The notes: a model not told the origin generated them from the sequence alone. Positions 18,845 to 36,463 are shown, numbered from the stretch's first letter. The stretch is 64,000 bases of DNA from a bacterium (GCA_043803945.1 JAZDJN010000061.1:32001-96000), one strand, 5' to 3'. Made by a program: numbers and translations.

Positions 18845-18848
18845 ATGG

Positions 18849-20443: not shown

Positions 20444-20998
20444 TCATAGGGATTGAGAAAGATTTCGGAGCAGATCCGATAACTGCCGATGGCAGTCTGG
20501 GCATAAATCGGACCTCTTGAGATCGATTTCCTCGACGTACGTTGATGAACGCATTACACATTCGAATTGACGGCAATGGTAGAGGCCGAAGGTATGGCCG
20601 AGCTCATGGATGATTTCCTTTTCGATGCGCTGAATCAACACTGGCCTGCTGGGAGGAATTCCGTAGAACTCATTCATTAAACGGTACATCGAAACGACCG
20701 CCATCGGTCCGTTCAATTGAGCTTCGCCGAAGACGAATGTCAGGACGGGAATAAAGAGATCGACATCGACCAGTGTGACAAGTTTATCTTTCTGGTTTGA
20801 GTACTTCCCCAATTGCTGGGCGAGGATGCCGGTGGAATTATACTGGCCACGCGAGGCATCGAAGACACGCTCGAGGTTGAGCGTTTCCTGAAGAAGTGTT
20901 GTTTGTACTGAAAACACATCGGCGATCCGCGACTCCAGCGGTTTGAGCTGCGCCTCGCTGATCGATGAAGCGTTGAGCATGTGGATCACGGGGATCAC
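20444..20998 (-). CDS. Archaemetzincin-family zinc metalloprotease
   Basis: RGQYNS, DLFIPVLTFVFGEA, HELGHTFGLYHC..CVM and CPDC; GTG start overlaps the upstream TAG by 1 nt. Confidence 0.9.
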   Translation of the reverse strand: MIPVIHMLNASSISEAQLKPLESRIADVFSVQTTLLQETLNLERVFDASRGQYNSTGILAQQLGKYSNQKDKLVTLVDVDLFIPVLTFVFGEAQLNGPMAVVSMYRLMNEFYGIPPSRPVLIQRIEKEIIHELGHTFGLYHCRQFECVMRSSTYVEEIDLKRSDLCPDCHRQLSDLLRNLSQSL

Positions 20999-22341
20999 TA
21001 CGGTCGCTTCAACCCGTATTTTTCGATCTTATTATATAATGTGACCCGATCGATTTGCAGGATTTCCGCTGACCGGGTAATATTCCAATTATTCTGTTGA
21101 AGGATCATAGAGATATGCGCCTTCTCCATAGAGGCAAGTGATCCGGCCGGAAGAATGTGGTTCTTCTCGTGCAATTGGAAGGGAAGATCTTCCGGTTTCA
21201 TGGTGGGAGGTTTCCCTACGACCATCGCGCGCTCGATAACATTCTCCAGCTCGCGCACATTCCCAGGCCAGTTGTACCGGATGATGGAATCCATCGCTTC
21301 CGACGAGATGCTTTGGATCTGTTTATTCATCGAGCGGGCGTACTTCCTGAGGAAATAATTGGCCAGCAGAGGGATATCCCCTTTGCGCTCGCGCAGCGGC
21401 GGGATGATAATCGTAAAGACATTCAACCGGTAGTAGAGATCTTCGCGGAAGAGTTTTTGTTCGACAGCTTCTTCGAGATCCCTGTTCGTCGCGCAGATGA
21501 TTCTAAAGTCGACCTTGATGATCTCATTGCCGCCGACGCGGCTGAATTGCTTTGTTTCAATGGCTCGCAACAGATCCATCTGGGTTTTCGGATGGATATT
21601 CCCTACTTCATCGAGAAAGAGCGATCCTCCATCGGCAAGCTCGAGTTTTCCTTTGCGGCGGTACTGGGCACCGGTAAAGGCACCACGCTCGTGCCCGAAG
21701 ATTTCACTCTCCAATATTCCCTCAGCCATACCGCCACAATTCACGGCCACAATCGGGAAATACTTCCGATCGCTGTTACTATGAATCGCGCGGGCAATCA
21801 ATTCTTTTCCGGTGCCGCTTTCTCCTCGAATCATGACCGTTGTATCGGTTTTGGCAACCGTCGAAATCAGATTGAAGACATTTTGCATTTGCAGCGACTC
21901 ACCGATAATCTCATCAGCTTTACAGAACTCGGAAATCTGTTCTTTCAGCTTGACGTTCTCGGAAGCCAGCATCCGTTGCTTGAGCGCGTTGGTTACAAGA
22001 TGGGAAAGGTGATCGGGATCGACAGGTTTCGTGACATAATCGAAGGCTCCGGCCTTCAATGCCTGCACGGCAGTATCGACTGTTGCATGGGCGGTAATGA
22101 AAATGACCGCGGCATTCGTGTCAATTTCCCGGATATGGGTATGCAATTCCATTCCATCCATGCCGGGCATTTTAATATCGAGCAGAATGATATCCCATTT
22201 CTGGGCCTGGAGTTGTTTGATCGCTTCAGCAGCGTTTTCAGCAGATTTGAGAGTATACCCATCTTCACGAAACCACTTCGTTAACGAATCCCTCACCACC
22301 TGTTCATCATCTACGATCAGTATCGATGGTACAGATTTCAT
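20998..22341 (-). CDS. Sigma54-dependent response regulator (NtrC/AtoC family)
   Basis: Receiver (VDDE, LDIKMPG, KP), GESGTGKE, GAFTGA, WPGNVRELEN and Fis-type HTH. Start MKSVPS at 22341 after AGGAG. Confidence 0.95.
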   Translation of the reverse strand: MKSVPSILIVDDEQVVRDSLTKWFREDGYTLKSAENAAEAIKQLQAQKWDIILLDIKMPGMDGMELHTHIREIDTNAAVIFITAHATVDTAVQALKAGAFDYVTKPVDPDHLSHLVTNALKQRMLASENVKLKEQISEFCKADEIIGESLQMQNVFNLISTVAKTDTTVMIRGESGTGKELIARAIHSNSDRKYFPIVAVNCGGMAEGILESEIFGHERGAFTGAQYRRKGKLELADGGSLFLDEVGNIHPKTQMDLLRAIETKQFSRVGGNEIIKVDFRIICATNRDLEEAVEQKLFREDLYYRLNVFTIIIPPLRERKGDIPLLANYFLRKYARSMNKQIQSISSEAMDSIIRYNWPGNVRELENVIERAMVVGKPPTMKPEDLPFQLHEKNHILPAGSLASMEKAHISMILQQNNWNITRSAEILQIDRVTLYNKIEKYGLKRP

Positions 22342-22354
22342 ATGGCTCCTTATA

Positions 22355-24004
22355 TTAATCGAGAGAGGAAAACTTTTTGTCTTCGTCTTTCTTGTTAATG
22401 GAAGATTGATCAACGGACCGTCGATAGGTCGGGAAGACCAATATCACGGTGGTCCCTTTCCCAACTTCCGACTCGACGGAAATTTTGCCTCCATGGCGTT
22501 CCATGATGCCATACACGACTGAGAGCCCCAAGCCGACACCCTGACCATCGACCTTTGACGTGAAGAAGGGTTCAAAAACCTTCGCCCGGTCTTCCTCCAA
22601 GATCCCAACGCCAGTGTCATGGATGTTGATGGTACAAAACTCCTCGTTCTCATCGATAGTCACAGTCACCGATAGTCTGCCCCCATCGGGCATTGCTTCC
22701 ACAGCGTTGACGAAGAGTGCTACCAATGCCTGTTGAATTTGATTCTCATCGCAGAGAAGGGGCACTTCTTTCGGAGGATATGTTGTCGAAAATTTTACAT
22801 TAGAAATTTGCAGGTGATGACGCACAAGCTGTTCCGCTTTTTCTACAATACGTTGTACGGGCGCGGCTGTTAGTTCGCCGATCTGCCGTTTCGAGAACAG
22901 AAGCAAATTATTCACAATCGTTCCGCATCGATCGGTCTCGCGTCGTATCAACTCGATGTCCTCGAGTGTATTTATTATCTCCGGTGTTAACTGTTCCTGC
23001 TTTTGAAGGCGGCGGGCAATCAGTTTTGCGTACGTTAAAATTCCTTCCAGCGGATTATTGATTTCGTGAGCAACCGTCGCCGCCAGCTTCCCCAGCGAGA
23101 CCATCTTCTCGATCTGAACGATCTGATCATGCATTTTGGTGATCTGCCCTGTTTTCTCCTGAACGCGCTGCTCGAGGGTATTTGCCCATTCCAGATTTTT
23201 TTCTTCTGCGGCACGCAAGGAATCCATCATGTTGTTGAAGGATGTGGCAAAACGGCCGATCTCATCCTTTCCACCGATCGGGATCCGAAAATCGATATCG
23301 CCGGATGAAATTCTCTGTGTACCCTCCATCAGCTCTTTCACCGGCCGGAGAATTGTGATATTGAGAAACAGAACAGAAAGCATGGCAATGCCGAAGGTGA
23401 GGACAATGGTGACGATGATAATCTGGGTCTGCGTTTCTGCAAGGCTCTTATCCACCTCCGCGAGCGACATGCGAACATCGAGCACACCGATGATTTTCCG
23501 TTGTTCGGGGCTCGGGTGGCAACTTGCTCCGGCGCAGTTCGGTTCATTCTTGATGGGATTGATGAGGCCAAGGAGGCGTTGCCCGTCGCTGCGTGAATAA
23601 ATTCTGACACGGCTGGGCGCCGGTACCGACTCGAGTGGTTTTTCCTGATCGTGACAACCGTAACACGCCTCAGCTTTTAGGTCGACACTCTTGCCTTTCT
23701 CTGTGCTATCCGTGGAAAACCGTATCTCACCCCGCTTATTATATATCCGAATTCCTTCCACACCAATCTGGCCTCCGATCGTATTCATAATTTGATAGAC
23801 ATCTTCTTTTCTGTTGAGAAGCATGCTATAGTGCGTTGAGCTTTGAATGAAATCGCTCACCCTGGTGGCACTTCCGAGAATTTGCGCCATCATTCTGTCA
23901 CGATAGAAATTGATAAAGTAGTATGAATAAACTCCGAAGAGAATGACGAGGAGAAAGAGAGAGCCGATGATAAGCCGACCGCGTAATGTTTGAATCCAGC
24001 GCAT
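22355..24004 (-). CDS. Membrane sensor histidine kinase with periplasmic heme-c motifs and HAMP domain
   Basis: Two TM helices; CYGCH and CAGASCH; HAMP; H-box AHEINNPL; NAVEAM, DTGVGI and GVGLGLS. Confidence 0.9.
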   Translation of the reverse strand: MRWIQTLRGRLIIGSLFLLVILFGVYSYYFINFYRDRMMAQILGSATRVSDFIQSSTHYSMLLNRKEDVYQIMNTIGGQIGVEGIRIYNKRGEIRFSTDSTEKGKSVDLKAEACYGCHDQEKPLESVPAPSRVRIYSRSDGQRLLGLINPIKNEPNCAGASCHPSPEQRKIIGVLDVRMSLAEVDKSLAETQTQIIIVTIVLTFGIAMLSVLFLNITILRPVKELMEGTQRISSGDIDFRIPIGGKDEIGRFATSFNNMMDSLRAAEEKNLEWANTLEQRVQEKTGQITKMHDQIVQIEKMVSLGKLAATVAHEINNPLEGILTYAKLIARRLQKQEQLTPEIINTLEDIELIRRETDRCGTIVNNLLLFSKRQIGELTAAPVQRIVEKAEQLVRHHLQISNVKFSTTYPPKEVPLLCDENQIQQALVALFVNAVEAMPDGGRLSVTVTIDENEEFCTINIHDTGVGILEEDRAKVFEPFFTSKVDGQGVGLGLSVVYGIMERHGGKISVESEVGKGTTVILVFPTYRRSVDQSSINKKDEDKKFSSLD

Positions 24005-24027
24005 ATACGAGTTTCCGAATCGATTTT

Positions 24028-24043
24028 GTCAGAAACCGTGCCA
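24028..24043 (-). promoter_or_regulatory. Putative sigma54 promoter for the kinase/regulator/protease operon
   Basis: TGGCACGGTTTCTGAC; correct spacing to the G at -13, GA at -13/-12. Confidence 0.45.
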
Positions 24044-24156
24044 GATACAAACTGTGGAATAATTAAACAATTCAAAGAATCGGAACCTCAAATATGCAGT
24101 TCTAAGAATCAAAATCGGTAAAATTGCTAATGATAGGAAGTGAGGAGTGGAGATTC

Positions 24157-24186
24157 TGATTTTGAAAATCACATAATTATGATTTT
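24157..24186. promoter_or_regulatory. Overlapping inverted repeats, candidate regulator-binding site
   Basis: TGATTTT-G-AAAATCA-CATAATTA-TGATTTT. Confidence 0.35.
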
Positions 24187-24358
24187 TATCCTTCATTTAT
24201 ACAGAATGTGGAGAAGCAGAATGGGATTAGGAGAGCCAAAGATAATGGTGAAGGAGTAGTCCTTGGATTGAATCACAATTATCTTCTAATGAGGGGGGTA
24301 CTCTAAGGCGGAACAACATCCGGGGCAATGAACGATCTCAACCTCGAATGTCTAAAGA

Positions 24359-25174
24359 TTATTGGATATGGAACTTTAGAAAGACCTCGCTTAGGGCCTG
24401 GCAATATTTCTTTGGGCCAAGAATTTCAGATACTTTATCGATCAGCATACCCCCGTCGGCCATCGTCATTCCTGCACGCGTCTGGCGCTTAGAAAGATAA
24501 CTCACAACGAGATCATTGAATTGCTTAGCATCTTCTCTATACAGGTCTGTGGCGCTTTCGGGACTGAGAAATCGTGACCGTTCATATCCCTCTTTCGAAC
24601 TATCTATATTAAAAAGCCATCCTTCCCCCCAGGCATCTTTTAAAAGCAGATGAGGATTCTTTTTCAGCATTGCATTCGTTGCGACAACCTTTCCCCGGAT
24701 TGGAGAGAAGAGTGGCAGAGTGCCACCCTCTATCACGATCCAACAACAGATTTTATCTTGTGTCAATTGCTCTCCAATGGATGGAAGGATAATAGCTCGA
24801 GGTGAGAGAAGTTTTGAGACAATTCCACTTTCCAAACCAACGATGACCATCTTATGCCCTTCTTCTTTCAACCACATATGCCGAGTATCGTACAGTATGC
24901 CTGCTCGAAGCGTATGCTCTTCTATTGGCGAGGTCGGTTCTTGACGGCTGACAGTTTGTTGGGAATTTTCTTGCGATGTAAGCTCCCCTCGCAGCGCTCG
25001 ATCTAACGGACAGCGCTCGCATTCAAAATTGCGCTCACAGAGCTGATACGAGAGAATACCGGCAGTCATCCAAACACAACGGATCTCATCAGATGGCACA
25101 ATCGGGTGTTTTCCTCTATGGCTGAGATCGCCCATGGAGACACCTTGTTCAGCGTGATCCTGCTCAGTCATCAT
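24359..25174 (-). CDS. GcvH-like protein (no lipoyl-Lys) with N-terminal four-Cys motif
   Basis: CVWMTAG..YQLCERNFECERCPLD; H-protein core RHMWL..SPIRGKVVATN..DAWGEGWL; C-terminal MADGG. Confidence 0.8.
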   Translation of the reverse strand: MMTEQDHAEQGVSMGDLSHRGKHPIVPSDEIRCVWMTAGILSYQLCERNFECERCPLDRALRGELTSQENSQQTVSRQEPTSPIEEHTLRAGILYDTRHMWLKEEGHKMVIVGLESGIVSKLLSPRAIILPSIGEQLTQDKICCWIVIEGGTLPLFSPIRGKVVATNAMLKKNPHLLLKDAWGEGWLFNIDSSKEGYERSRFLSPESATDLYREDAKQFNDLVVSYLSKRQTRAGMTMADGGMLIDKVSEILGPKKYCQALSEVFLKFHIQ

Positions 25175-25227
25175 TCACTCCTCTCAAGCTTCTATAAATC
25201 CCCCGACAACATTGTCCTCGAACCTCC

Positions 25228-25944
25228 TCACAAAGATGATGCATCATCGGCATCCGGAACGTCGAGGAGGAATTCTGATGCTATTTCGTGCCATTTGTCT
25301 TGAGAAAGGTTCTTGGCAATACCGAGAACAGGGATTCCTCCGTCCTGAAGAACCATTCCGATATTCCCGCTGCTACGGGCGCGTAACGTGTCCACTGTTT
25401 GCTCCATCCAAGCGCGAGCCAATTTACCCGAGAGAAGATTCGTCACATCATTCTGTAGACCCACCGGACGAATCTTCATGAGCCATCCCTTCTCATAAGG
25501 ATCATCGTTGACAACCTTCGGCGACGCTTGGACTTTTTCATTAACGGCGACTACGCATCCGCTAACCGGCGATCTCATTGGAATAGACTTTGACTCAACT
25601 ATGATATCCCAAGCTCTCTTCCCCTGCTGGATATGCTCCCCAAGCCTGGGAAGATGAATCGTATGCATCTCGCCGATAAGTTTCTGAGCAAAATCGTCCA
25701 TTCCAATGACGACAGTCTCCTTATCCTCTACACGCGCCCAACTGTGGCCTTGATGGAAATACAGACCGTCAACGATCCGAAACCACGGTCGCGACACTGG
25801 CGGCTCGGGAGATACTCTCCCTACTGGAGGAACCGAAGTCTTATTGAGGAATTTCCAGAAGGCAACCAGGGTCAGTAAGAAACCGATCACAAGGAGATAC
25901 TCAATCCCCTTAGTCGCAAATATATCTACATATTGATTACCCAT
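25228..25944 (-). CDS. Membrane-anchored GcvH-like protein (no canonical lipoyl-Lys)
   Basis: N-terminal TM; YFHQGHSWA, IGMDDFAQKLIG, SPVSG..VN and DPYEKGWL; LQDGG. Confidence 0.85.
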   Translation of the reverse strand: MGNQYVDIFATKGIEYLLVIGFLLTLVAFWKFLNKTSVPPVGRVSPEPPVSRPWFRIVDGLYFHQGHSWARVEDKETVVIGMDDFAQKLIGEMHTIHLPRLGEHIQQGKRAWDIIVESKSIPMRSPVSGCVVAVNEKVQASPKVVNDDPYEKGWLMKIRPVGLQNDVTNLLSGKLARAWMEQTVDTLRARSSGNIGMVLQDGGIPVLGIAKNLSQDKWHEIASEFLLDVPDADDASSL

Positions 25945-27233
25945 TGCTTTTCTGCTCCTTCTTTCGGTACAAACTTTGTTTCACGGGTCACTTCAGATCG
26001 CGAACGTGCCCAAGCCGGGGGATCGCTCAGGATCGGCATTCTGTTGACGATCCATCGAAGAACGATAATCTCGGCAACGACTACACCCAGTGTGATCTCG
26101 AGTTCCATCCATGAGGGAATATATCTCTCAATTGCATACCATTTGAAAGCGATGATCGAGACATTCAATCTATTTATAACAATTCCTATGAGTGTCACAA
26201 CAGCCGCAATTCGGATCAACGACAAATTGCGGAATCGCACCGCTTGAGTATAGAGACGCACGGGAATCAGGACGAATCCCACAACCTCAACAAGGAACCA
26301 CCATCCCATCGGCGTATTAATGTAATTCCACTGTTGCCCATGGATAAACACAAGGACTTTCAGGAAGAAGTAGATATACATTGTTCCCGCACACACCCGT
26401 GCCAGACCGATCACGATGTCGTCGTGCTCCAAACGATGTTGAGGACTGATTTGTTTTCTGAATACCTTCTGACTGATTGATCCTTCGAAAATGACCATGG
26501 ACAACCCAGCAAAAATGCTGGAAACGAAAAAGAGGATCGGTATGAATTCGGAGTACCAGAGGGGATGGATTTTGCTCTTCGCCATCAGGAACAGGGCACC
26601 AAGACCGGATTGATGCAACGTAGAGAGTGTGATCCCAAAAATGACGGCACCGAGGGTCAATCCGCCAAGGAACTTCCGAATCCGTTTCCATCCCAGCCAT
26701 TCGGCGATTGCCGGAGAGAATTCGACGAACTCAGCTATCATATACAGCATGAAGTGCCACGCAACAAGAAACATCACCGAACTCACACCAAACGAATTGC
26801 CAATAATGGGATTTATGACGTTCCACGGGCGTCCCAGGTCAAACAGGAGCGCACCCGCGTAGAAGACGTAGGCCAGGAAACCGTTCAGAACGGTTATGCG
26901 CACGATCGGATGGTACTTCTCGAGGCGAAGGATGTAGACCATAAATGTCACAACATACGCTCCGCCTGCGAAAGCAACACCTGTGATGACGTCAAACCCG
27001 ATCCAAATTCCCCAGGGGAAGTCCTGAGAAAGGTTGGTGGTCGATGCGAGCCCTTTGGTGAACCGTATCACGAGAAGAACCGCCGCTGTCGCGAGCACAA
27101 CAGCAGCGAACAGGTTGAACGGAGTCAACAGCTTTCCTTTCGGTTTCATTTCACTCTTGAGAAAGCTACCGAACCGTTTGGTTTCAGAGATCAGGAGAGA
27201 CCACTTATTCTCATTGTCCGTCTGGTGTTCCAT
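25926..27233 (-). CDS. NrfD/PsrC-family integral membrane subunit (HybB/HmcC-like)
   Basis: PWGIWIGFDV, DLGRPWN, LSTLHQSGLG, IHPLWY and NRLNVS; about 10 TM segments. Confidence 0.9.
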   Translation of the reverse strand: MEHQTDNENKWSLLISETKRFGSFLKSEMKPKGKLLTPFNLFAAVVLATAAVLLVIRFTKGLASTTNLSQDFPWGIWIGFDVITGVAFAGGAYVVTFMVYILRLEKYHPIVRITVLNGFLAYVFYAGALLFDLGRPWNVINPIIGNSFGVSSVMFLVAWHFMLYMIAEFVEFSPAIAEWLGWKRIRKFLGGLTLGAVIFGITLSTLHQSGLGALFLMAKSKIHPLWYSEFIPILFFVSSIFAGLSMVIFEGSISQKVFRKQISPQHRLEHDDIVIGLARVCAGTMYIYFFLKVLVFIHGQQWNYINTPMGWWFLVEVVGFVLIPVRLYTQAVRFRNLSLIRIAAVVTLIGIVINRLNVSIIAFKWYAIERYIPSWMELEITLGVVVAEIIVLRWIVNRMPILSDPPAWARSRSEVTRETKFVPKEGAEKQWVINM

Positions 27234-28080
27234 AGAATTCCTGGTCGCTTTCTTTTTTGGTTGCGTTGCTTAGGCCAAGCAGGAACGCCGGCCACAGAGT
27301 GAGTACCACGGGCACTGCGTAGAGATAGTCTTTGCTGAGTTCCGGATACGGGATTGTTCCCAGGTCAGTCCGAAATCCGAGTTGCCCAAACGGAACACTG
27401 GCAAGATACATGTAGCTTGTCCCTCCAGCCTCATCCTCGCCGTATATGTGGTGTGCATAGGTTGACGGATTGTTCGCGATGAGAGCTCTCCCCGTCTCTA
27501 TCAACTCCCTGCGGTTTCCGAATTTAATTGCCTCAGCCGGGCAAGCATCTGCACAGGCCGGACTCTTGCCTTCTTCGAGCCGATCCCAGCAGAGATTGCA
27601 TTTTTGAATCTTCGGAATCGCGCTGTCATACTCAAACTTGGGAACGTCGAAGGGGCAGGAAAGCATACAGAAGCGGCAACCCATGCATTTATCCTCACGC
27701 CATATGACCGGTCCTTCCTCGGTCTTCAACATCGCTTTTGTAAGGCACGCTGAGGCACAGGCAGGTTGATTACAATGCATGCATTGCTTTTTGACAAACA
27801 TCTCCCCTTTGTCTGTTTGAAAGCGATTGACCACAGACCACTGGATCGTCGACAGCGACCTTTCTTTCTTGAACACCTCGGGATTGGAATCGGGTTCGGG
27901 GAATCCGTGAGCTTCCGCGCAGGCGAGCTCGCAGCTTCGGCACCCGACACAACGCGTGGTATCAACGAGTACTCCGATGAATTCCTTATTCTCCGATCTA
28001 TTTTCAGCCTCCGCGCGATCTACCCCAAGTACCGCTACTCCTACTCCGCTCAGTGTTTTGACAAAGTTCCTTCGATTCAT
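27211..28080 (-). CDS. Tat-exported 4x[4Fe-4S] subunit (HybA/HmcB-like)
   Basis: NRRNFVK Tat motif; CVGCRSCELAC, CMHCNQPACASAC, CMGCRFCMLSCP and KCNLC..CADACP; C-terminal TM. Confidence 0.9.
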   Translation of the reverse strand: MNRRNFVKTLSGVGVAVLGVDRAEAENRSENKEFIGVLVDTTRCVGCRSCELACAEAHGFPEPDSNPEVFKKERSLSTIQWSVVNRFQTDKGEMFVKKQCMHCNQPACASACLTKAMLKTEEGPVIWREDKCMGCRFCMLSCPFDVPKFEYDSAIPKIQKCNLCWDRLEEGKSPACADACPAEAIKFGNRRELIETGRALIANNPSTYAHHIYGEDEAGGTSYMYLASVPFGQLGFRTDLGTIPYPELSKDYLYAVPVVLTLWPAFLLGLSNATKKESDQEFYGTPDGQ

Positions 28081-28159: not shown

Positions 28160-29308
28160 CTAGCGCCTGAAAAACTTGCTGACGACGATATTCCATTCAC
28201 GGTCTTCCAACTTCCCCATTTGCCCGGAATGCAGAGAGTCATTACTCCCGTTTCCTCCACCATTTGGTCGACCGACGGATTTGATGAAGTGGTCAATTTC
28301 TGTTTGGAAGAAGCTCACCGCTGTCTTGCCGATCTTGAGTTTCGAGAGCTCTGCGTCGAAGTTCTCTGCGTCAACGACACAAATCCAGTTTCTGCCGTAC
28401 GGAGTGATCTCCAGCGCCTCAAGGTGTTCACCGAGATACTTGTTGATCTTCGTGACGCGGCCGCTGACAGGAGCTTGGAACGGGATCATTCGATGTCCGC
28501 ATCGTATAGAGAAGAGGGGCTGCCCGGCGTTCACAGTCATCCCAAGATTCGGGAACTCGATATCATCGATTCGCCCAAGCAGTTTCTTGGCAAAATCATC
28601 GACGCCGATCTTGACACCTCCATCCGATTCCATCGTGAGCCAACAATGACCTTCGGAGATGAACGCTCCCCCCGGAATAGCGAACTCGGCAGTCGGGAAG
28701 TATCCCATTTCCGTCACGTGGCTGACATGCACCCTGGGTTTCAGCTCGCTGTTAATTCTCTCCTGACGTCGGAAGAGGAATTTCTTCACCAACTCTATCA
28801 GTTCGTTCTCCGTGAAAGGCTTCTGAACATAATCCATCGCCCCATGTTTCATACACTCCACGGCCGATTGTACAGTTGCATATCCCGTCACGATAATGAC
28901 ATCGATATCGGGGCGTAGATGCTTCACGGACTTCGCTACCTCCTCGCCAGTCATTCCAGGCATCTTCAGATCCGTGAAAAGAAAATCATAGTGATGCTGC
29001 TGGATGAGACCGAGAGCTTCAGAACCAGTTTCGACTGTATCAATGGAATAGCCGTCGAGAACGAGAATCTTTCGAAAACTGTCGAGAATGACAGATTCAT
29101 CGTCCACACAGAGAATCCGAGCTTTCGGATTCTGCACTTCGGCGCGTTTCAACGATTTCGCCTCCCGGCTGAAGTCGAGCCTCAAGCTAACCGCCAAGGC
29201 AGCCTCCCGCTCCTCCCTCAGCTTTTTTTCCTTCATTTTCTTTAACGTGATGCGAAGCAGAAAGTCAGCTACAACAAAGATGATAAGAGCGAGAATGAAC
29301 AATGGCAT
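28160..29308 (-). CDS. Membrane-anchored response regulator receiver fused to a GcvH-like domain
   Basis: Start MPLFIL after AGGAGGT; TM; receiver VDDE..TDLKMPG..TGY..KPF; then GHCWL..IGVDDFAKKLLG..APVSGRV..PYGRNWI. Confidence 0.85.
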   Translation of the reverse strand: MPLFILALIIFVVADFLLRITLKKMKEKKLREEREAALAVSLRLDFSREAKSLKRAEVQNPKARILCVDDESVILDSFRKILVLDGYSIDTVETGSEALGLIQQHHYDFLFTDLKMPGMTGEEVAKSVKHLRPDIDVIIVTGYATVQSAVECMKHGAMDYVQKPFTENELIELVKKFLFRRQERINSELKPRVHVSHVTEMGYFPTAEFAIPGGAFISEGHCWLTMESDGGVKIGVDDFAKKLLGRIDDIEFPNLGMTVNAGQPLFSIRCGHRMIPFQAPVSGRVTKINKYLGEHLEALEITPYGRNWICVVDAENFDAELSKLKIGKTAVSFFQTEIDHFIKSVGRPNGGGNGSNDSLHSGQMGKLEDREWNIVVSKFFRR

Positions 29309-29385
29309 GACGTACCTCCTTTGAACATAATGATCTGCACACAATGTGCTCGACCAGCAGGAATATTATCTTTTAATTTACGTTT

Positions 29386-30207
29386 TCAATGATCTCCGAT
29401 ACATGTTGTCAGCTGTTTGAGCGCATAGGCCACATCTGTTGGGAGGATCCGGTACAACCACGCGGCGAAGTAAGGATCCTTTTCGAGCGCCTTTGGACTT
29501 GCGAGAAGCGTTTCGTTCCGTTCGACGATCCTTCCGCTGATCGGACTCAGGACATTGTGGACGAGACCATCCTCCGATGCGATCTCTGCACACGCCGAGC
29601 CCTGCACAATCTCGTAGTTCAAATCGTAATAACGAACTTCCGCGACGGCTGATACAGTTTTAACGAAAATGTCCGTGACGCCAATCAGGCCGCTGCCGTT
29701 CGGCTCGATGCATGCCCAGCTTAAATTCCCCAGACGGTGGTAATTGGCTGGACACGGCACGGCCAGACCGGATAGATCAATCTCACCCTCACCTCGCGGC
29801 ACTGTGTTTTGAGTCAGCGTATGATACCGGAGACCGCGATGAATCGCACTTTCGAGTTCATCTGCGGTAAAAGGTTTCGGCACAAAATCAATCGCTCCAT
29901 TCTTCAGCGCGTTTACGGCGTTTTGCATCGTCGAGTATCCAGTGATCATTATCAGCGGAGTGAGGACCCCCACACGTTTCATTGAATCAAGAATATAAAA
30001 ACCGTTGAGTTCTGGCAACATGATATCACACACAACGAGCCTGTACGTGTTCTTTTGGAGCTTCTCCAATCCCGTCCTTGCTTCTGCAGCTGATTCGATG
30101 GTCAGTCCTCCGGCCTCGCAAACCCTGCACACCCCATCCCGAACGACCTGTTCATCGTCAATCACAAGTATATCAATCGGTTTACTCACAGCACTCACCC
30201 TTTTCAA
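29386..30207 (-). CDS. Response regulator receiver fused to a GcvH-like domain
   Basis: IDDE..CDIMLP..TGY..KPF, then SWA..IGVTD..SPISGRIVERN..DPYFAAWL. Confidence 0.85.
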   Translation of the reverse strand: MKRVSAVSKPIDILVIDDEQVVRDGVCRVCEAGGLTIESAAEARTGLEKLQKNTYRLVVCDIMLPELNGFYILDSMKRVGVLTPLIMITGYSTMQNAVNALKNGAIDFVPKPFTADELESAIHRGLRYHTLTQNTVPRGEGEIDLSGLAVPCPANYHRLGNLSWACIEPNGSGLIGVTDIFVKTVSAVAEVRYYDLNYEIVQGSACAEIASEDGLVHNVLSPISGRIVERNETLLASPKALEKDPYFAAWLYRILPTDVAYALKQLTTCIGDH

Positions 30208-30250
30208 GAGAATGCGTTGACGGCGACGTGCGCCGTACGATCATGGCTCT

Positions 30251-32146
30251 TCACGAAATAGGGAGCCGGATTCTGAAGGTAGTCCCGCTGCCAAGTTCGC
30301 TTTCCACCGAGATCGTACCATTATGATTATCGATAATCCCCCAGATTACCGCTAATCCAAGTCCTGTTCCCTTCTGACCCTTCGTCGTGAAGAATGGCTC
30401 GAAGATCCTCGATAGGTCTTCCTTTGGGATGCCAACACCTGTATCTGCAACGCACACTTCCACGTACACCTTCTTCCCGACAGAGTCAACAGTAGCCCAT
30501 CGTTGCCAGCCGCACTTTGTATTGATGCAAAACTCGACATCTCCCTGCGCCGGGATCGAAAACGAGAACAGGTTGCTGCCGCACACAGGGCACTTGCCCT
30601 CTTCCATCACGAGAGAGACATTACATTCAGGGCAAACAACATCGAGTTGTTTGTCTTCACGGACTTCGAATTTATATCGATGGCGATTGAGTCCATAAAT
30701 GGGATCCAACATAATGAATCCTTCATCTCCGTTGGATCGCGCTTTTACTCTGATGGAGGGAATACCCTCGATCTTGAACTCCGTGGTAATCAAGTCGTGA
30801 CCGCTCGGACAGCGTGCAGCCTTGATATGGACAATTCCTTGTGGAGGTAATCTCAGGATACCCGAGGCGATCGTCACCGTACCCGTGCTATCCTCGATTG
30901 CATCGGCGGCGTTGACCAGGAGATTGACAAACACCTGCTGCATTTGATTAGGATCCAGAGTGATTTTCGGAACGTGAGGATCGATGCTGCGAACAACCTT
31001 CAGCCCTTTGATGGCAAGTTGATGCTCAACAACTGCCACAGAGCGGTCTATGATTTCATTGATATTAGAGAGGCTCTTCTTTGGAATAGACTGCCGGGCG
31101 AAATCGAGAAGGCTCTTGACAATCTCCCTGCTTCTGATTGTCTCGCGAACAATAATCTTCAGATCGTCATGCAACTCCGGATTGTTCTGGCTTCTCTTGA
31201 GCAGAAAGCTCGCGTACGTCAGAACTCCCGTCAAAGGATTGTTGATTTCGTGAGCTATCCCGGCCGCCAGACGTCCGAGAGAGGCCATTTTGTCTGATTG
31301 AAACAACTGGAGTCGGGCCTCGGATAGCTTCATGGTCATCGTGTTAAAAGATTGCGCCAGAAAACCAATGTCATCCTTTCCCAGATCTGGAACCGTATAG
31401 CTGAGGTTTCCGCTTCCGACCTGTTTTGTGGCGTCAAGAAGTACGCCTACCGGTTTGCTCACCCATCGATTGACGAAGTACGCGATGATGAGGCTCGCCG
31501 CGATTATGGCGCTCAAAGCAAATACGCCGATCTGGATGGCACTTGCCTGAATCCTCTCGTCCACATCTGCGAGGGAGATCGTCACGTCCAGTACACCAAG
31601 AACCTGCTGCTGACTCGAGTGGGCGTGACATGAAGCATCCCAACATGATCGCTCGGTATAGATCGGGTTGATGACACCGAACACCCTTGCAGAATCAGGA
31701 TGAATGCGGAAGATGCGCGTTCGTTCCGAAATGGAGAGCCTCTCGAGAGGCTTGTCCGCGGCGTGGCATCCATAACAGCTCTCGGCTTGTTTGTCTACCA
31801 TCCGACCGATGCTTTCCTTGCGCGAGGAGTAGATGATCTCTCCTTCCTTGTTTAGCACGCGAACTTCGTTGATGGCAGGATCCGATCCGATGTCATTGAT
31901 GATGATATGGATTCGTTCCCGCTGATTCAGGAGCATATCGTACCGCGTTCCGTTCCGTACCGTTTCGCTCAACTGCATCGCGTGCCGCTCGACTTCAGCA
32001 AGGAGGTTCTCCCGCTGTGAGCGAATGTTGAAGTAGGAGAAAACACCGATCGTGATGATGGTCGTCAATCCGACTACAACAATTAGCTTAAAGCCAATTC
32101 TTCTTGATAGCACGGTGACCATATGTTCTCGCTTCATATCCATCAC
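30251..32146 (-). CDS. Membrane sensor histidine kinase with heme-c motifs and a Cys-rich insertion in the ATPase domain
   Basis: CYGCH and CWDASCH; HAMP; AHEINNPL; NAADAI, then about 110-aa insert (CPSGH..CPEC..CPVC..CINTKC), then DTGVGI..GTGLGL. Confidence 0.9.
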   Translation of the reverse strand: MMDMKREHMVTVLSRRIGFKLIVVVGLTTIITIGVFSYFNIRSQRENLLAEVERHAMQLSETVRNGTRYDMLLNQRERIHIIINDIGSDPAINEVRVLNKEGEIIYSSRKESIGRMVDKQAESCYGCHAADKPLERLSISERTRIFRIHPDSARVFGVINPIYTERSCWDASCHAHSSQQQVLGVLDVTISLADVDERIQASAIQIGVFALSAIIAASLIIAYFVNRWVSKPVGVLLDATKQVGSGNLSYTVPDLGKDDIGFLAQSFNTMTMKLSEARLQLFQSDKMASLGRLAAGIAHEINNPLTGVLTYASFLLKRSQNNPELHDDLKIIVRETIRSREIVKSLLDFARQSIPKKSLSNINEIIDRSVAVVEHQLAIKGLKVVRSIDPHVPKITLDPNQMQQVFVNLLVNAADAIEDSTGTVTIASGILRLPPQGIVHIKAARCPSGHDLITTEFKIEGIPSIRVKARSNGDEGFIMLDPIYGLNRHRYKFEVREDKQLDVVCPECNVSLVMEEGKCPVCGSNLFSFSIPAQGDVEFCINTKCGWQRWATVDSVGKKVYVEVCVADTGVGIPKEDLSRIFEPFFTTKGQKGTGLGLAVIWGIIDNHNGTISVESELGSGTTFRIRLPIS

Positions 32147-32149
32147 AAC

Positions 32150-33298
32150 TCACAAGCTCTTCTTTCGGACTGACCGAATCTTTGTGCCTGGGCTTTTATC
32201 CGGGTAACTCTTGTCATCGTGGCAGCTCGAACAGGTCGGTTTCTTGGCAAAGTCTCTCCCCTCATGACAACTATCGCAGTCAATTTCTCCGTGATTCTCG
32301 TCCAATTTTAGTCCGGTCACGCTGTGGTTGAACGATCCACTCTTCCATTGTGCGTGGCACGTGCCGCAATTCCCTGAAAGTCCTTTGTATTCGTTCCTTC
32401 CTTTGTGGCATTGGGTACACCCCAGCGTTGAGTGAAAGCGCCCCAGGTCAAATCGCGCCCGACGCGCATGGTTGAATCCTGCCCGCGGCTCCTTGTCGTG
32501 ACAGCGACTGCAGTTCACGTCGACTGCATGACATGGAGAACATCGCTCATGTCCCCCGACAGAGCGGGCAACTTGGCTGGCAGAAACTTCTGCAGGCTTG
32601 TGGCACCTGGTACATCGTTCGTTTGTGTGGCAAGCTGAGCAAGAGAGTCCAAATCGATCCGTATGATCGTTGTGATAAAACGTGACTACCTTTCCATCAT
32701 CAAAAGAGGTGTCAAATACGAGTCGCGTCGGCCTCGCAGTATTCACTTCTGCTCTCCTCTTCTGTGTCGAGGTGGCAGGCGCCAATGGATCTGCTTTCAG
32801 GGCGTGGCAACTCTCACACTTCGTTGCCGATATGCCGCTTTCCCGGTGGCAGTTGATACACTGCCGGTGATATGCCCCTTTCAGACCCGGCTTCGATAAA
32901 TCCGCGCTTTTCGATGATGTTTCAGCAATATGGCACTCGCTACATGCGAGCACACTCCCCGGTGGATTGTAGTGGTGGCAGAGGATACAGTTGCCCGACA
33001 TTTCCGACATTTTCGCATGGACCTTGTGGGTGAAAAGAACTGGTTCGTAAAGATCCGGAGCTCCGGTGATCTTCTGAAGGACTATCTTGTCAGGTCCGGT
33101 CTCAGCTGAAGTATGAATCGTCACCATATCTGCACGCGGACACTTTTTAAGACTCGGGTTGGCCTTCGTCGGTATCTCGGTCGTGTGACAGGCGAGACAG
33201 CCATTGGAATGCTTACCCGAAGTCTGTGCACTGGCTTGGAGCTTAACCAGAAACAGGACGATGACTATAGAAGCGGAGTACTTTTCAATCAGTTTCAT
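32150..33298 (-). CDS. Periplasmic multiheme cytochrome c (cytochrome c3-like modules, 13 CxxCH)
   Basis: Signal peptide; 13 CxxCH motifs counted; c3-like V.F.H..H and LKGAYHRQC..CH. Confidence 0.9.
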   Translation of the reverse strand: MKLIEKYSASIVIVLFLVKLQASAQTSGKHSNGCLACHTTEIPTKANPSLKKCPRADMVTIHTSAETGPDKIVLQKITGAPDLYEPVLFTHKVHAKMSEMSGNCILCHHYNPPGSVLACSECHIAETSSKSADLSKPGLKGAYHRQCINCHRESGISATKCESCHALKADPLAPATSTQKRRAEVNTARPTRLVFDTSFDDGKVVTFYHNDHTDRFGLSCSACHTNERCTRCHKPAEVSASQVARSVGGHERCSPCHAVDVNCSRCHDKEPRAGFNHARRARFDLGRFHSTLGCTQCHKGRNEYKGLSGNCGTCHAQWKSGSFNHSVTGLKLDENHGEIDCDSCHEGRDFAKKPTCSSCHDDKSYPDKSPGTKIRSVRKKSL

Positions 33299-34539
33299 TT
33301 CGCAGTACCTCGAATCGAGTATTTGGTGGTCGGGCTGATGTGTCGTTGTTCAACGCTGATGATCGGGAACACCTTCACGAAGAACCGATAGATGAGGACC
33401 AGCAGTGCAATGAACCCCACTGTAACCGAAAATTCTCCCACCGACGGGAAATATCCCCCCGTTGCATACGGGGGAGTATACGCGACGATGAAATTGTTGA
33501 CCCGGTTGAGGAGCACACCCAGAATGACAAGTGTCGAAGCGACGAATAGCCAAAGCGGTGAGCGGACAACAGTGCGAGAAAGAAACATTCGGAGGGGAAT
33601 AATGACTCCACCTACGACCTCGAGTACAAACATGATGCTTTCGGTCGTCGGCTCAGTGAGATACACAAATGTCTCACGGATAACCATGTCACCCAGCTTG
33701 AAAGCTAGATAGATTCCAAGCAGAGGTGCAACCATGGTCCCCAGTTTCGATAATATTGTCATCTCAGGTTTCAGCCCGAATGACCGTGCTGCAAGAAGCG
33801 ACTCGAAAATCACCATGGGGAAGCCTACAGCGACAGCCGAGAGGAGAAAGAGTAGCGGCAGGACTGGAGTCTGCCATAGCGGGTGCATCTTGGGTCCCGC
33901 GATAATCATGAGTGTTCCCAGTGAGGATTGGTGCAACGTCGAGAGGACAATTCCAGCAATGATGAAGAGGAACATCGTCTTACTCAGAGTCCGGTCGAGT
34001 GCTCGCAGCACACTCTCGAGCGGCCTGTTGAGGATAGAGAGAACGCCTGGGAGTCCCACACGACCTATGAACCGCTCGGTCACAATCGGCAGAAATTCGA
34101 TGTAGAGAACGGACAGGTAGATGATGACACAGATGCCGACCTCGAAGAGCGCAGAGTTTCCGTTCCACATCAGTAGCGGATGCCAGATATAGTACCATCT
34201 GCCGATATCGAAAACAACGCCGAGTGCAACAAACGTGTAGCCCAACATCGCGGTAAGGAGCGCCGGTCGCACAATTGCATGATAATCTTCCCTATGCATC
34301 ACATGCCCAAGCGCAGCGGACGTGAAGCCGCCCGCAGCCAAGGCCACACCCGCTGCGACATCAACCCCGATCCACAAACCCCATGGATATTGATCACTCA
34401 GATTCGTAACGGCGCCTATTCCAAAAAACAATCTCACGAGAACAAAAGCGATTCCGTTCAATGCCAGGATGGCCAGGATTATCACTCCAGGAGTAATGTA
34501 CTTCTTTGCAATAGCTTCAGGTGCTGTCAATGTGTTCAT
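33295..34539 (-). CDS. hybB: HybB-like NrfD-family membrane subunit
   Basis: YPWGLWIGVDV..GVALAAGGF, SALFEV, LSTLHQSSLG and MHPLWQ. Start MNTLT at 34539 gives an ATGA overlap with the upstream gene. No hydrogenase-2 catalytic genes adjacent. Confidence 0.8.
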   Translation of the reverse strand: MNTLTAPEAIAKKYITPGVIILAILALNGIAFVLVRLFFGIGAVTNLSDQYPWGLWIGVDVAAGVALAAGGFTSAALGHVMHREDYHAIVRPALLTAMLGYTFVALGVVFDIGRWYYIWHPLLMWNGNSALFEVGICVIIYLSVLYIEFLPIVTERFIGRVGLPGVLSILNRPLESVLRALDRTLSKTMFLFIIAGIVLSTLHQSSLGTLMIIAGPKMHPLWQTPVLPLLFLLSAVAVGFPMVIFESLLAARSFGLKPEMTILSKLGTMVAPLLGIYLAFKLGDMVIRETFVYLTEPTTESIMFVLEVVGGVIIPLRMFLSRTVVRSPLWLFVASTLVILGVLLNRVNNFIVAYTPPYATGGYFPSVGEFSVTVGFIALLVLIYRFFVKVFPIISVEQRHISPTTKYSIRGTAK

Positions 34540-35438
34540 TCGGTTATCTCCTCCTCTGATTTTTGGCGGTTCTTGTTTATCCACATCAGGCCACCCAGGA
34601 GTGAATAAAGAGAAATGGGGGGAACGAAGTACGCGAAGATCCCGTGCTGAATCGATTCGCTCGTCCCCGGCATCGGATCCCCCTTAAGACTGGGAAACTC
34701 TAAGTCCTTGAAATCCGCTTTCGCCAAATAGAGGTATGAAGTCCCTCCAGCCTCGAACTCTCCGTAGATATGGTTCCGGTATCGGTCAGGATAGTTTTCG
34801 ATCCTTTTCATCGCAATCTCGATCATGGCAGATCGGCGGCCGTACGTGAGACTCTCCACCGGGCAAATTTCCACGCAAGCCGGAATACCACCACCTTGCG
34901 TTCGGTGATCACAGAAATCGCATTTGACGATGTCGGGCTTTAGTGCGGTATTGTACTGAAACGAAGGGATTTGGAAGGGGCATGCGACCATGCAGTATCG
35001 GCATCCAATGCACTTGTCGGTGTCCCAGAGAACAGGTCCGCTCTTCTCCTTCGCAATCGCACCCACAATGCATGCCGACTCGCAAGCGGGGTAGTCACAG
35101 TGCATACACTGTACCTTGACGTACGTCGGCGACGCTGCACCGCTCGCATTTTTATACTCGTTGACGACCGTGAGCGAGTCTGGATTGGGACGTCGACGTT
35201 CCGGGACATTCAGGCGACCTGGTGCAGGGATTGCCGAGTCACTGGAAAGGCCATGCTCCTTCCGGCAGGCTGCTTCGCAGCTTCGACATCCGATGCACAC
35301 CGTGAGGTCGCAGAGGACACCCATTCTGTCCGGAGAAGGAATTTTTGAACCCGCTCCAAGTGCCGCTTCCCCCAGTGTGGCGGTCGCTGCCGCGACAATT
35401 GTTGTTCGGAGAAAATCACGCCTAGTTTCCATAGTCAT
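34536..35438 (-). CDS. Tat-exported 4x[4Fe-4S] subunit (HybA/HmcB-like)
   Basis: TRRDFLR; CIGCRSCEAAC, CMHCDYPACESAC, CIGCRYCMVACP and KCDFC..CVEICP. Confidence 0.9.
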   Translation of the reverse strand: MTMETRRDFLRTTIVAAATATLGEAALGAGSKIPSPDRMGVLCDLTVCIGCRSCEAACRKEHGLSSDSAIPAPGRLNVPERRRPNPDSLTVVNEYKNASGAASPTYVKVQCMHCDYPACESACIVGAIAKEKSGPVLWDTDKCIGCRYCMVACPFQIPSFQYNTALKPDIVKCDFCDHRTQGGGIPACVEICPVESLTYGRRSAMIEIAMKRIENYPDRYRNHIYGEFEAGGTSYLYLAKADFKDLEFPSLKGDPMPGTSESIQHGIFAYFVPPISLYSLLGGLMWINKNRQKSEEEITE

Positions 35439-35522
35439 TTATTCACAATGTTGGATTTCACGATTCGAGAACCCCGTCCTAGAGGGACGGGCGTTATTAG
35501 TTTTTTTGAAGTACCACCGGAC

Positions 35523-36194
35523 TCAAAGGACTTCGCGAAGGAACATACGGTCAAATTGTTCCCATGTATGTGGCTGTACGCATTTCAATGCCCCATCCAC
35601 GGGGGGCCCGCCGTCTTGAAGCAAGGCAGAGATCATTTCGTTTGCACTGTCTTGTGCGGCAAATAGATCGCGCAACCTGCGGAATTCTTCGGCGATCCAT
35701 CCTCGGGTCTCTTCCCCCAACAATAACTGTTTGATATCCGAATGTCTCGCCGGCACAATCGTATATGCCCATCCATCTGTAAAGAGCATTTCTTTGAGCA
35801 TTCCAGGTTCCTTGATGAGTCGATCGTTTCGTTCGTATATTTCTCCTTCCATGGGAGCTCGAATGGTGAGAGAATGCTCTCCTTCTGTCAGGACAAGAAT
35901 GGGTTCCCCCCTTTGCACGCGCTGGTGAGGCTCTTTCAAGTACGAAACACTCGGAGAGCCCAACAATCTCGCTACAAAATCGTCGACACCGAGGCGCATC
36001 TTGCCAGATGGAAGGAGATTCATCCAGGTATGAGAACGCGCAAAAAAGATCCCTTCCGGGAGGCGGACCGGATACCTTCGCTCCGGGACGCGGTTATCGG
36101 CAGCAGTGACTTTCACTCCGGTTCTCGATCGGTGGACGATAGCATCAAGAATCACGAAGAGGAGAATCGTCAATACAACAAATAGAATAGCCAT
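35523..36194 (-). CDS. Membrane-anchored GcvH-like protein (no lipoyl-Lys)
   Basis: N-terminal TM; FFARSHTW, LGVDDFV, APMEGEIYERN, DGWAY and LQDGG; AAGGAG RBS. Confidence 0.85.
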   Translation of the reverse strand: MAILFVVLTILLFVILDAIVHRSRTGVKVTAADNRVPERRYPVRLPEGIFFARSHTWMNLLPSGKMRLGVDDFVARLLGSPSVSYLKEPHQRVQRGEPILVLTEGEHSLTIRAPMEGEIYERNDRLIKEPGMLKEMLFTDGWAYTIVPARHSDIKQLLLGEETRGWIAEEFRRLRDLFAAQDSANEMISALLQDGGPPVDGALKCVQPHTWEQFDRMFLREVL

Positions 36195-36330
36195 AATGAT
36201 GCTCCTTTAGTCCCTTGTTTAGATAGCAGTTCCGAAGCCCGCTGCTATTGGAAAAAGCTCTCCTGTGAATTGCTGCCATTCATCATTGTTCAAAAAGACA
36301 CTTTCAGTGGCAGATCATACTATAGCATAT

Positions 36331-36463
36331 AGTAAAAGCGTGCCAGCGAGAATTTTGGATTCCCGAGTATGACCAGTGTAACAGATTGATATAGATCAGT
36401 TTAGAACTACTAAGAATGAGTGGTGAAAAATGAAACGCAGCCCTGTAATGAAAAAGTTTACAG
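36331..36463 (-). promoter_or_regulatory. Sigma54-type promoter architecture: -24 box, IHF site and upstream inverted repeat
   Basis: TGGCACG at 36345-36339 (-12 box imperfect: TGGCACGCTTTTACT); TATCAATCTGTTA (WATCAANNNNTTR) at 36391-36379; CTGTAA-N9-TTACAG at 36443-36463. Confidence 0.45.

Follow-up and report, generated by a model that had tools for sequence, protein, structure and literature searches.

GcvH-like proteins lacking the canonical lipoyl-lysine position in a recurrent bacterial gene cluster with an NrfD-type redox module, a two-component system and an archaemetzincin

Among the described redox complexes of bacteria, the Hmc and Nhc complexes of Desulfovibrio (HmcABCDEF, NhcABCD) combine an exported four-cluster iron-sulfur (Fe-S) protein with an NrfD-type membrane subunit, and in hydrogenase-2 of E. 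coli (HybA/HybB) a periplasmic Fe-S protein is joined to a haem-less NrfD-type quinone site. Such NrfD-type modules are a main route by which anaerobes link periplasmic redox chemistry to the membrane, and their regulation is poorly understood. According to excerpts of a review, the NrfD subunit has a quinone site and putative proton paths and no redox cofactor of its own (PMC8076601). Proteins with the fold of the glycine cleavage H-protein (GcvH) have also been described outside glycine cleavage; LbpA of the sHdr system and GcvH-L of the SirTM/LplA2 operon both stand beside a redox system and, in the excerpted accounts, act via a lipoyl-lysine with dedicated lipoate ligases (PMC6067878, PMC12440151). 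The archaemetzincins (AmzA, AMZ1/2, AMZ-tk) are characterized, in the excerpt of their description, by the extended motif HExxHxxGxxHCx4CxM...CxxC (PMC3427221). In the present study, we analysed a bacterial DNA stretch of 64,000 nucleotides (GCA_043803945.1 JAZDJN010000061.1:32001-96000), called the window hereafter, in which positions 20444..36463 hold a cluster encoding five GcvH-like proteins, two Fe-S/NrfD pairs, a multihaem cytochrome, two histidine kinases, a sigma-54 activator and an archaemetzincin. We describe an eight-gene core of this cluster that recurs in many phyla and a second module inserted in it, and we weigh what its GcvH-like proteins may do.

The genes were taken from a listing of open reading frames (ORFs), and the 14 proteins were searched against the Pfam and NCBIfam profiles. 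The genes lie consecutively on the minus strand, from 20444 to 36194, and are numbered g1 to g14 in order of transcription; six of the 13 junctions overlap. In gene content, gene order and overlaps the locus is as an earlier note on this DNA had described it, and the note's claim that the region encodes no GcvP, GcvT or GcvL, lipoate ligase, or catalytic subunit of a hydrogenase or molybdoenzyme was confirmed with both profile collections for 20444-36463. The core begins with g1 (35523..36194), a GcvH-like protein of 223 residues with an N-terminal hydrophobic segment, taken as transmembrane (TM). It continues with the 4Fe-4S HmcB-like protein g8 (27211..28080), the NrfD-family HmcC-like protein g9 (25926..27233), a second TM-GcvH-like protein, g10 (25228..25944), with the conserved N-terminal motif FATKGIEY and a C-terminal extension containing DGG, and the soluble g11 (24359..25174), in which a four-cysteine (Cys4) module, C-x12-C-x5-C-x2-C, precedes the GcvH-like domain. 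The last three core genes encode the histidine kinase HK2 (g12, 22355..24004), the sigma-54 activator g13 (20998..22413) and the archaemetzincin-family zinc protease g14 (20444..20998). Between g1 and g8 stand the HybA/HmcB-like 4Fe-4S protein g2 (34536..35438), the NrfD-family HybB-like protein g3 (33295..34584), the periplasmic cytochrome c g4 (32150..33298), the histidine kinase HK1 (g5, 30251..32146) and two response regulators in which a receiver (REC) domain is fused to a GcvH-like domain, namely g6 (29386..30207; Response_reg 88.6 bits) and g7 (28160..29344; Response_reg 103.2 bits), the latter with a TM segment. In g4 we counted exactly 13 CxxCH motifs, the number already claimed, with matches to Cytochrom_CIII, Cytochrome_C7 and c3_2.

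The cluster is not a chance juxtaposition, because its core arrangement recurs in other genomes. A search with g10 found 1221 homologues at E <=1e-3. In a collection with one genome per species (185,579 species), 457 stretches encoded a g10 relative; the best 80 of these were taken as related loci, and their ORFs were compared by BLASTP with the 14 proteins of the window. Where at least 3.5 kb lay upstream of the g10 homologue (58 loci), an HmcB-like gene was present in 57, an HmcC-like gene in 56 and a further GcvH-like gene in 45. With 6 kb or more on each side (26 loci), the activator and the archaemetzincin were each found in 24, the kinase in 23 and the Cys4-GcvH protein in 20. The recurring order is TM-GcvH-like, HmcB-like, HmcC-like, g10-type TM-GcvH, g11-type Cys4-GcvH, HK2-type kinase, sigma-54 activator and archaemetzincin, and the strong co-occurrence that had been claimed for these components is thus found in other genomes. 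In contrast, the second module (g2 to g7: HybA/HybB-like proteins, 13-haem cytochrome, second kinase and two REC-GcvH regulators) was found in only five of the 26, in close Bacteroidota relatives and Calditrichia. We therefore read the window as the eight-gene core into which a second module, restricted to certain lineages, has entered between g1 and g8, in place of the single system proposed earlier.

The names of the phyla carrying the core were taken from the record titles of metagenome-assembled genomes (MAGs). They include Bacteroidota/Ignavibacteria, Calditrichota, Gemmatimonadota, Chlorobiota and Syntrophales with other Thermodesulfobacteriota, and further Myxococcales, Glassbacteria, Schekmanbacteria, Krumholzibacteria, Nitrospinae and Limnocylindria. 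The kinase-activator-archaemetzincin trio is sometimes inverted downstream. A rearranged core, opening with the archaemetzincin and closing with the kinase and activator, occurs in some deltaproteobacterial/Thermodesulfobacteriota MAGs (L027, L030, L031, L035, L040, L041, L078, L086), and these loci have a small c-type cytochrome gene after the NrfD or the g10 gene. Within the same class, canonical GcvH was present in 40 of 41 genomes and additional GCV_H matches in 23, so the distribution of the latter is patchy. No further conserved partner emerged from the flanks of 14 diverse loci, where 52 of 126 unassigned ORFs, picked by hand, were scanned with Pfam; the core module is accordingly self-contained. 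Among individual loci, genes for cytochrome b561 and multihaem cytochromes stand immediately upstream in L038 and L041, L043 has two tandem HmcB/HmcC pairs, each with its own GcvH-like genes, and L012 and L007, from the same MAG by record title, are two copies of the system on different contigs.

The two Fe-S/NrfD pairs of the window, g2/g3 and g8/g9, scored 64.1 and 77.4 bits on Fer4_11 and 73.2 and 54.9 bits on NrfD, respectively. An NrfD-domain protein adjoining a four-cluster ferredoxin-like protein of the twin-arginine translocation (TAT) type marks an NrfC/NrfD-type pair, and this is what was found. The TAT_signal match of g2 is weak (19.9 bits, cut-off 22.7), and g8 starts with MNRRNFVK. 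Homology establishes both as periplasm-facing Fe-S and NrfD pairs, of the kind that exchanges electrons between periplasmic carriers and the quinone pool.

Five of the 14 proteins (g1, g6, g7, g10 and g11) matched the GCV_H family at 49.9, 53.4, 64.4, 91.0 and 51.0 bits, above the Pfam cut-off of 22.2 bits. The whole genome has six such matches, these five and one canonical GcvH of 126 residues (158 bits, with the motif EAVKAVS) on a separate contig; GcvP and two genes of the LplA/LipB family (BPL_LplA_LipB) are also encoded on other contigs. The structural model of g11 has pLDDT values above 90 over the larger part of the GcvH core and C-terminal helices (residues 90-230 and 250-260). Its best match in the PDB is the T. 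thermophilus H-protein 1onl_A (E 1e-11, TM-score on target 0.91, root-mean-square deviation 1.7 A), and the GcvH-L structure 5a35 matches less well. The family matches of all five and the g11 model show the H-protein fold to be real. All five nevertheless lie below the equivalog cut-offs for GcvH itself, g10 coming closest with 96.5 bits on NF002270 (cut-off 117) and 82.8 bits on TIGR00527 (cut-off 115.85). In the alignment, none of the five has lysine in the canonical lipoyl-lysine column. The claim that these proteins are without the lysine stood in this respect and failed in another, since g10 keeps a lysine one column later. In the g10 family, 61 of 81 members have lysine at this position and the other 20 have R, I, T, G, H, A, Q, N or V. 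Of 20 sequences of the g1 family, 13 have R at the corresponding place, five have K and two have H, and the family alignment of g11 showed no conserved lysine there. Because a residue carrying an essential prosthetic group would be invariant, the alignments argue that the GcvH-like family as a whole is independent of lipoylation. The GcvH-like proteins thus appear, by sequence, as a set unlike the H-proteins of glycine cleavage.

Membrane anchoring divides the GcvH-like proteins. A TM-like segment was found in 76 of 80 g10-type and 32 of 39 first-position GcvH-like proteins, and in none of the 49 g11-type homologues. The stop codon of g9 overlaps the start of g10; in the related loci, where the nearest Met stood in for the start codon, the two genes overlap at the HmcC/g10 junction in 34 of 61 and are no more than 30 nucleotides apart in 52 of 61, and the HmcB/HmcC junction overlaps in 43 of 63. 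The g9 family has a mean column identity of 65% over 35 sequences. For the g10 type a natural fusion fixes the topology, with a periplasmic N-terminus and a cytoplasmic GcvH-like domain, because in this homologue (P0137) a signal peptide and four CxxCH motifs are followed directly by FATKGIEY, the TM segment and the GcvH-like domain. In keeping with this, Lys and Arg are more frequent in the g10 family behind the helix (mean 3.06 in 20 residues) than before it (1.58), and g7 has a receiver domain. Among 17 longer g10 homologues, 16 are tandem double units; this architecture suggests that the GcvH-like units may work in pairs. In the tandem proteins P0016-P0022 and P0121-P0136, some of them from records labelled Gemmatimonadota, a TM segment is followed by two GcvH-plus-extension units in 413-425 residues. 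The C-terminal extension is common to g1, g10 and g11, with an invariant DGG, a conserved Trp and confident helices in the g11 model, and Pfam gave no extra family for the extensions of g10 and g11.

Fusions of the GcvH-like domain point to a role in signalling. The GcvH part of g6 found 99 proteins, of which 98 carry both REC and GCV_H, so that by sequence the REC-GcvH proteins are a stable family. A quick tree of GcvH domains keeps each paralogue class together and places the GcvH domain of g7 among the first-position TM-GcvH proteins with a support of 93 in the Shimodaira-Hasegawa-like approximate likelihood ratio test (SH-aLRT), a placement in keeping with the insertion of a receiver domain into a protein of the g1 type. 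The tree also makes g6 the sister of canonical GcvH (support 87), a grouping of long branches that is not to be trusted. The N-terminal module of g11 reads C-x-W-M-x2-G-x3-Y-x-L-C-x5-C-x2-C, and its four cysteines are kept in every one of 50 sequences. Searched as a profile of 47 positions, the module was found in 1030 representative proteins at E <=1e-3. Architectures were read for the best 150: 86 had one to four Cys4 modules and then GCV_H only, five had REC with two Cys4 modules, one (P0211) was Cys4-GcvH-HisKA-HATPase and one (P0273) TPR-Cys4x2-HisKA-HATPase. The remaining 57, many of them short fragments, had no family match (threshold E <=1e-6 for 127 proteins and E <=1e-3 for 23). Against the PDB sequences the best hit of the g11 module (56 residues) was a TM helix of Zn transporter 8 at E 1.4, which is not meaningful, and Pfam searched at E up to 10 gave nothing credible. 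The module is probably a metal or Fe-S site; its C-x5-C-x2-C spacing recalls what we take to be the motifs of Fe-S sensors.

Both kinases of the cluster have HAMP, HisKA and HATPase_c domains and predicted periplasmic c-type haem attachment motifs, namely CYGCH (residue 124) and CWDASCH (residue 168) in HK1 and CYGCH and CAGASCH in HK2; at least 90% of 46 HK2 orthologues retain these patterns, C..CH and C....CH. The ATPase domain of HK1 is split: Pfam covers only profile positions 30-109 (residues 552-630), and an insertion of about 120 residues (about 430-550) has the zinc-ribbon-like motifs CPSGH, CPEC and CPVC, whereas HK2 has no such insertion. As for g13, it has the make-up of an enhancer-binding response regulator, with a REC domain (Response_reg 119.5 bits), a sigma-54 AAA+ domain (Sigma54_activat 228.2 bits) and HTH_8 (43.7 bits).

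Strict matches to the -24/-12 sigma-54 pattern numbered 13 in the 80 related loci, all on the strand of the cluster, where about six would be expected by chance on both strands. Eight immediately precede the first GcvH-like gene, four precede the kinase gene and one lies elsewhere; their position and strand are informative and their number is not. The window has, in the intergenic region between g11 and HK2 (24005..24358, minus strand), a sigma-54-like element, TGGCACGGTTTCTGAC, about 25 nucleotides before the ATG of HK2, and close relatives have TGGCATAGTTTCTGCC at the same place. The element TGGCACGCTTTTACT upstream of g1 was considered as a sigma-54 promoter and dropped for its poor -12 element. 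A sigma-70-like match with an extended -10 (CTGGCA-16-TATAGT, with TG ahead of the second hexamer; 36319-36346, minus strand) overlaps the TGGCAC element upstream of g1. At the other end of the operon, a terminator-like hairpin (20436..20460, minus strand), a consensus match of a 10-pair stem followed by a T-rich tail, overlaps the stop codon of g14.

The protease g14 belongs to the archaemetzincins (peptidase M54) by its score on NF033823 (161.7 bits, cut-off 145) and by both metal-site motifs, HELGHTFGLYH and CRQFECVM...CPDC, which are intact, the spacer before CxxC being 16 residues and not 17. At least 90% of 46 orthologues share the HExxHxxGxxH/Cys4 motif, and g14 is predicted to be active. 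A reciprocal search of 201 genomes of the same phylum found archaemetzincin matches in 32. Leaving out four second copies (E <=2.4e-25), all 20 strong matches in other genomes (E <=1.8e-32, with the locus returned) lie directly beside an activator orthologue, against none of the nine weak ones.

We propose that the cluster encodes a redox system tied to two-component signalling, in which the GcvH-like domains serve as non-lipoylated cytoplasmic adaptor or signalling modules, and we give this proposal about an even chance of being right. An interaction or effector role is suggested because the same domain follows a receiver, follows a Cys4 module and precedes a kinase core. The core would consist of a periplasm-facing, quinone-interacting two-subunit module and three H-fold proteins. 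Held by their N-out helix, g1 and g10 (and also g7) would present the GcvH-like domains at the cytoplasmic face of the complex, and g11 and g6 would be recruited to it from the cytoplasm, so that the GcvH-like domain could signal the state of the NrfD complex, or influence the complex, at its cytoplasmic side. Phosphorylation by HK1 may switch g6 and g7 and the Cys4 site may switch g11, and this switching would feed the kinase/sigma-54 circuit, whose output, through HK2 and g13, would be sigma-54 transcription of the operon. Candidate sites for the protease are the disordered linkers, in g10 at residues 35-51 and in g11 at about 60-90. In this scheme we infer the contact with the NrfD protein, the direction in which signals run, the metal of the Cys4 site and the substrate of the protease. 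The earlier note had likewise seen the H-protein fold as an adaptor that couples a quinone-linked complex to a phosphorelay; the 98 of 99 REC-GcvH proteins, the P0211 fusion and the coupling of the g10 and NrfD genes are consistent with this and fall short of proof. Its further suggestion, a coupling of these proteins to proteolysis or their binding to NrfD, kinases or activator, found no support beyond synteny.

Several points weigh against the adaptor proposal. A partnership of any GcvH-like protein with NrfD, a kinase, the activator or the protease is so far a prediction from synteny, and an NrfD protein with no membrane-spanning cofactor is a puzzling object for sensing by a cytoplasmic domain. 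The kinase/sigma-54 pair beside the operon may only regulate its transcription. On the promoter side, TGGCACGGTTTCTGAC has GA where GC is expected at -12, the two strict matches in the window (0.44 expected by chance) both lie outside the cluster, and the strict motif accounts for only 13 matches among the 80 loci. Lys119 of g10 lies near the tip of a hairpin in the model (strands 110-116 and 119-125), so lipoylation of the window's own g10 is possible. Kinase or receiver fusions of the Cys4 module are rare, seven of the 150 architectures examined, and the quick tree has 127 columns and many unresolved forks. The C-terminal extension may already be covered by PF28260, a Pfam label that many g10 homologues carry in precomputed annotation. 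A complex prediction of g9 with g10 scored 0.26 against a mark of 0.32 with controls not run, and we use it neither for nor against binding.

Purely structural or assembly subunits offer the most serious alternative. Here the GcvH-like proteins would be HmcD/NhcD-like, or stand-ins for HmcE/F, and the two-component system would only switch the operon on. The tight coupling of the g10 gene to the NrfD gene, the TM anchor of g10, the fusion to a periplasmic cytochrome in P0137 and the sigma-54 motifs before the structural genes in eight loci all agree with such a role, and a two-component system beside its target operon is commonplace. The stable REC-GcvH family and the Cys4-GcvH unit at the sensor position of a kinase in P0211 are hard to explain in these terms, and g11 is soluble, as are its homologues. 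We hold this alternative to be possible, while on balance doubting it.

At the other extreme, the H-fold without its lysine could be a new input/output domain of two-component systems that acts directly on the NrfD-type module, the archaemetzincin resetting it by cleavage of the linkers. We consider this unlikely. If it were true, g1, g6, g7, g10 and g11 would dock on the cytoplasmic side and either gate the proton/quinone chemistry after translation or report the state of the complex to the kinase, and a respiratory complex would be under direct phosphorelay and proteolytic control in more than 10 phyla.

The lysine of the g10 type raises the question of a swinging-arm carrier, with a lipoyl or other group at the hairpin lysine shuttling reducing equivalents, sulfur or an acyl group at the cytoplasmic face, an arrangement that would resemble LbpA with sHdr or DsrC with the DsrMKJOP complex. 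This lysine adjoins the canonical column and most family members have it, none of the other four proteins is as GcvH-like as g10, and the genome has two LplA/LipB-family genes; LbpA itself, as excerpted, gives the precedent of a GcvH-like carrier outside glycine cleavage (PMC6067878). The 20 of 81 family members with another residue, among them I, G, A and V, speak against a carrier, as do the other four island proteins, which have no lysine. The conserved core contains no gene for a lipoate ligase or an Hdr-like or other thiol-active catalytic protein, and the NrfD subunit, in the excerpted review, offers no transmembrane electron path (PMC8076601). A carrier function for g10 is in our judgement quite improbable.

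Hydrogen metabolism came into question through the surroundings of the cluster, where the earlier note has to be corrected: hydrogenase genes are nearby, and hypE ends about 380 bp upstream of g1. The region 36574-57756 holds hypE, genes for a major facilitator superfamily (MFS) transporter and an MtaA/CmuA-like methyltransferase, hypD, a LolCDE-like ABC transporter, hypF, a maturation protease, hoxH/Y/U/F/E-like genes, hypB and hypA; a second, Vhu/Mvh-like NiFe large subunit is partial and runs off the end of the window (63446-64000). The cluster could accordingly be a HybA/HybB-type anchor with its regulators for a nearby hydrogenase, and the best or good scores of g2 and g3 on the HybA/HybB models, together with the hypE and hypF genes within 8 kb in L038, lend it some support. 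The hydrogenases of the window are, by NCBIfam, of the cytoplasmic Hox and Vhu/Mvh-like kinds, which to our knowledge do not use a periplasmic HybA/HybB anchor. In the 14 scanned flanks, hyp genes appeared once and hydrogenase structural genes never stood beside the cluster, and the HybA and HybB scores lie below the equivalog cut-offs. For these reasons the hydrogenase-anchor idea was rejected as very improbable; the hypE adjacency in the window looks incidental, because L038 alone of the 14 loci has hyp genes nearby. Finally, ordinary H-proteins of glycine cleavage, as GCV_H matches above the cut-off and the public name 'glycine cleavage system H protein' of homologues would have it, or a chance meeting of unrelated genes, have practically no probability left and are refuted by scores of at most 96.5 bits against a cut-off of 117, the lysine that is not conserved, the canonical GcvH and GcvP on other contigs (which, with the LplA/LipB genes there, also support the reading of the earlier note) and the synteny across many phyla.

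Elsewhere in the window, 58020-62487, between hypA and a hydrogenase maturation protease, encodes a DISARM DrmD-like SNF2 helicase (NF038317, 382 bits, cut-off 610) and an unassigned ORF of 457 residues. Its GC content is low (0.38-0.39), and it looks like a defence-gene insertion inside the hydrogenase region. On the other side of the cluster, a REP-associated tyrosine transposase-like ORF at 8764-9534 matches its family only over the C-terminal part (66 bits, cut-off 80), and two neighbouring but separate sets of 2-oxoacid:ferredoxin oxidoreductase genes (alpha/beta/gamma) at 10022-12845 and 17455-19946, the second VorB-like, enclose serA/serC-like genes.

Literature searches, with most subscription journals outside their scope, returned no paper on GcvH-like proteins with NrfD modules, receiver domains or archaemetzincin, which agrees with the claim that the combination lacks a functional description. 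The words 'glycine' and 'GcvH' do not occur in the excerpted NrfD review (PMC8076601), and the excerpt of another paper mentions archaemetzincin only as a structural homologue of DUF6775 (PMC13325395). The cluster would give a textbook carrier-protein fold a second life without its prosthetic-group site. It also gives the archaemetzincins, a family of obscure physiological role, a fixed genetic context in bacteria, and its named partners open the way to pull-down, phosphotransfer and protease assays. We know of no physiological substrate of the archaemetzincins described so far.

Compared with the known systems, the redox part of the cluster is nearest to Hmc and Nhc, HmcB and HmcC being the best named models for g8 and g9, and the multihaem cytochrome g4 making up with g2 and g3 an Nhc-like set of three. 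On the Hmc models, however, all four proteins score below the equivalog cut-offs: g8 318.6 against 420, g9 418.5 against 550, g2 290.7 against 420 and g3 270.6 against 550. The cytochrome has 13 haem motifs and not 16 or nine, with an HmcA score of 48.2 against a cut-off of 400. Pfam and NCBIfam found no cytochrome b or CCG subunit of the HmcE/HmcF type in the island. The island adds GcvH-like subunits, a haem kinase, a sigma-54 activator and an archaemetzincin, in another gene order. Its g2 and g3 resemble HybA and HybB, yet score 244.7 against 263 and, on NF008133, 354.5 against 450, and the island has no large or small hydrogenase subunit. Judged by these profiles, it resembles a quinone module of the Hmc/Nhc/Hyb type and fails membership of each family.

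The GcvH-like proteins differ from LbpA and GcvH-L in lacking a conserved lysine and a ligase and in having TM anchors, receiver domains or a Cys4 module; Hdr-like or ligase domains were found neither in the 14 genes nor in the conserved core of related loci, and a CCG/Fer4 pair appeared in one of the 14 scanned flanks (L044). The regulators recall ZraSR and AtoSC, with HK2 scoring best on the AtoS/ZraS and g13 on the AtoC/NtrC/ZraR models, and also haem-c periplasmic sensor kinases, with c-haem attachment motifs in the periplasmic part of the kinase. They differ from them in scores below the equivalog cut-offs, in an HK2 sensor domain with no Pfam match above cut-off and in the archaemetzincin that accompanies the kinase/activator pair in the loci examined. 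That protease is an archaemetzincin by family score and extended motif, and unlike the known members its bacterial relatives in these loci are fixed beside a sigma-54 activator and GcvH-like genes, a setting that goes unmentioned in the excerpted archaemetzincin papers. Overall, the cluster joins a known kind of redox machine to an undescribed accessory or signalling set of H-fold proteins without the canonical lysine and to a fixed protease partner, a combination that is real and widespread.

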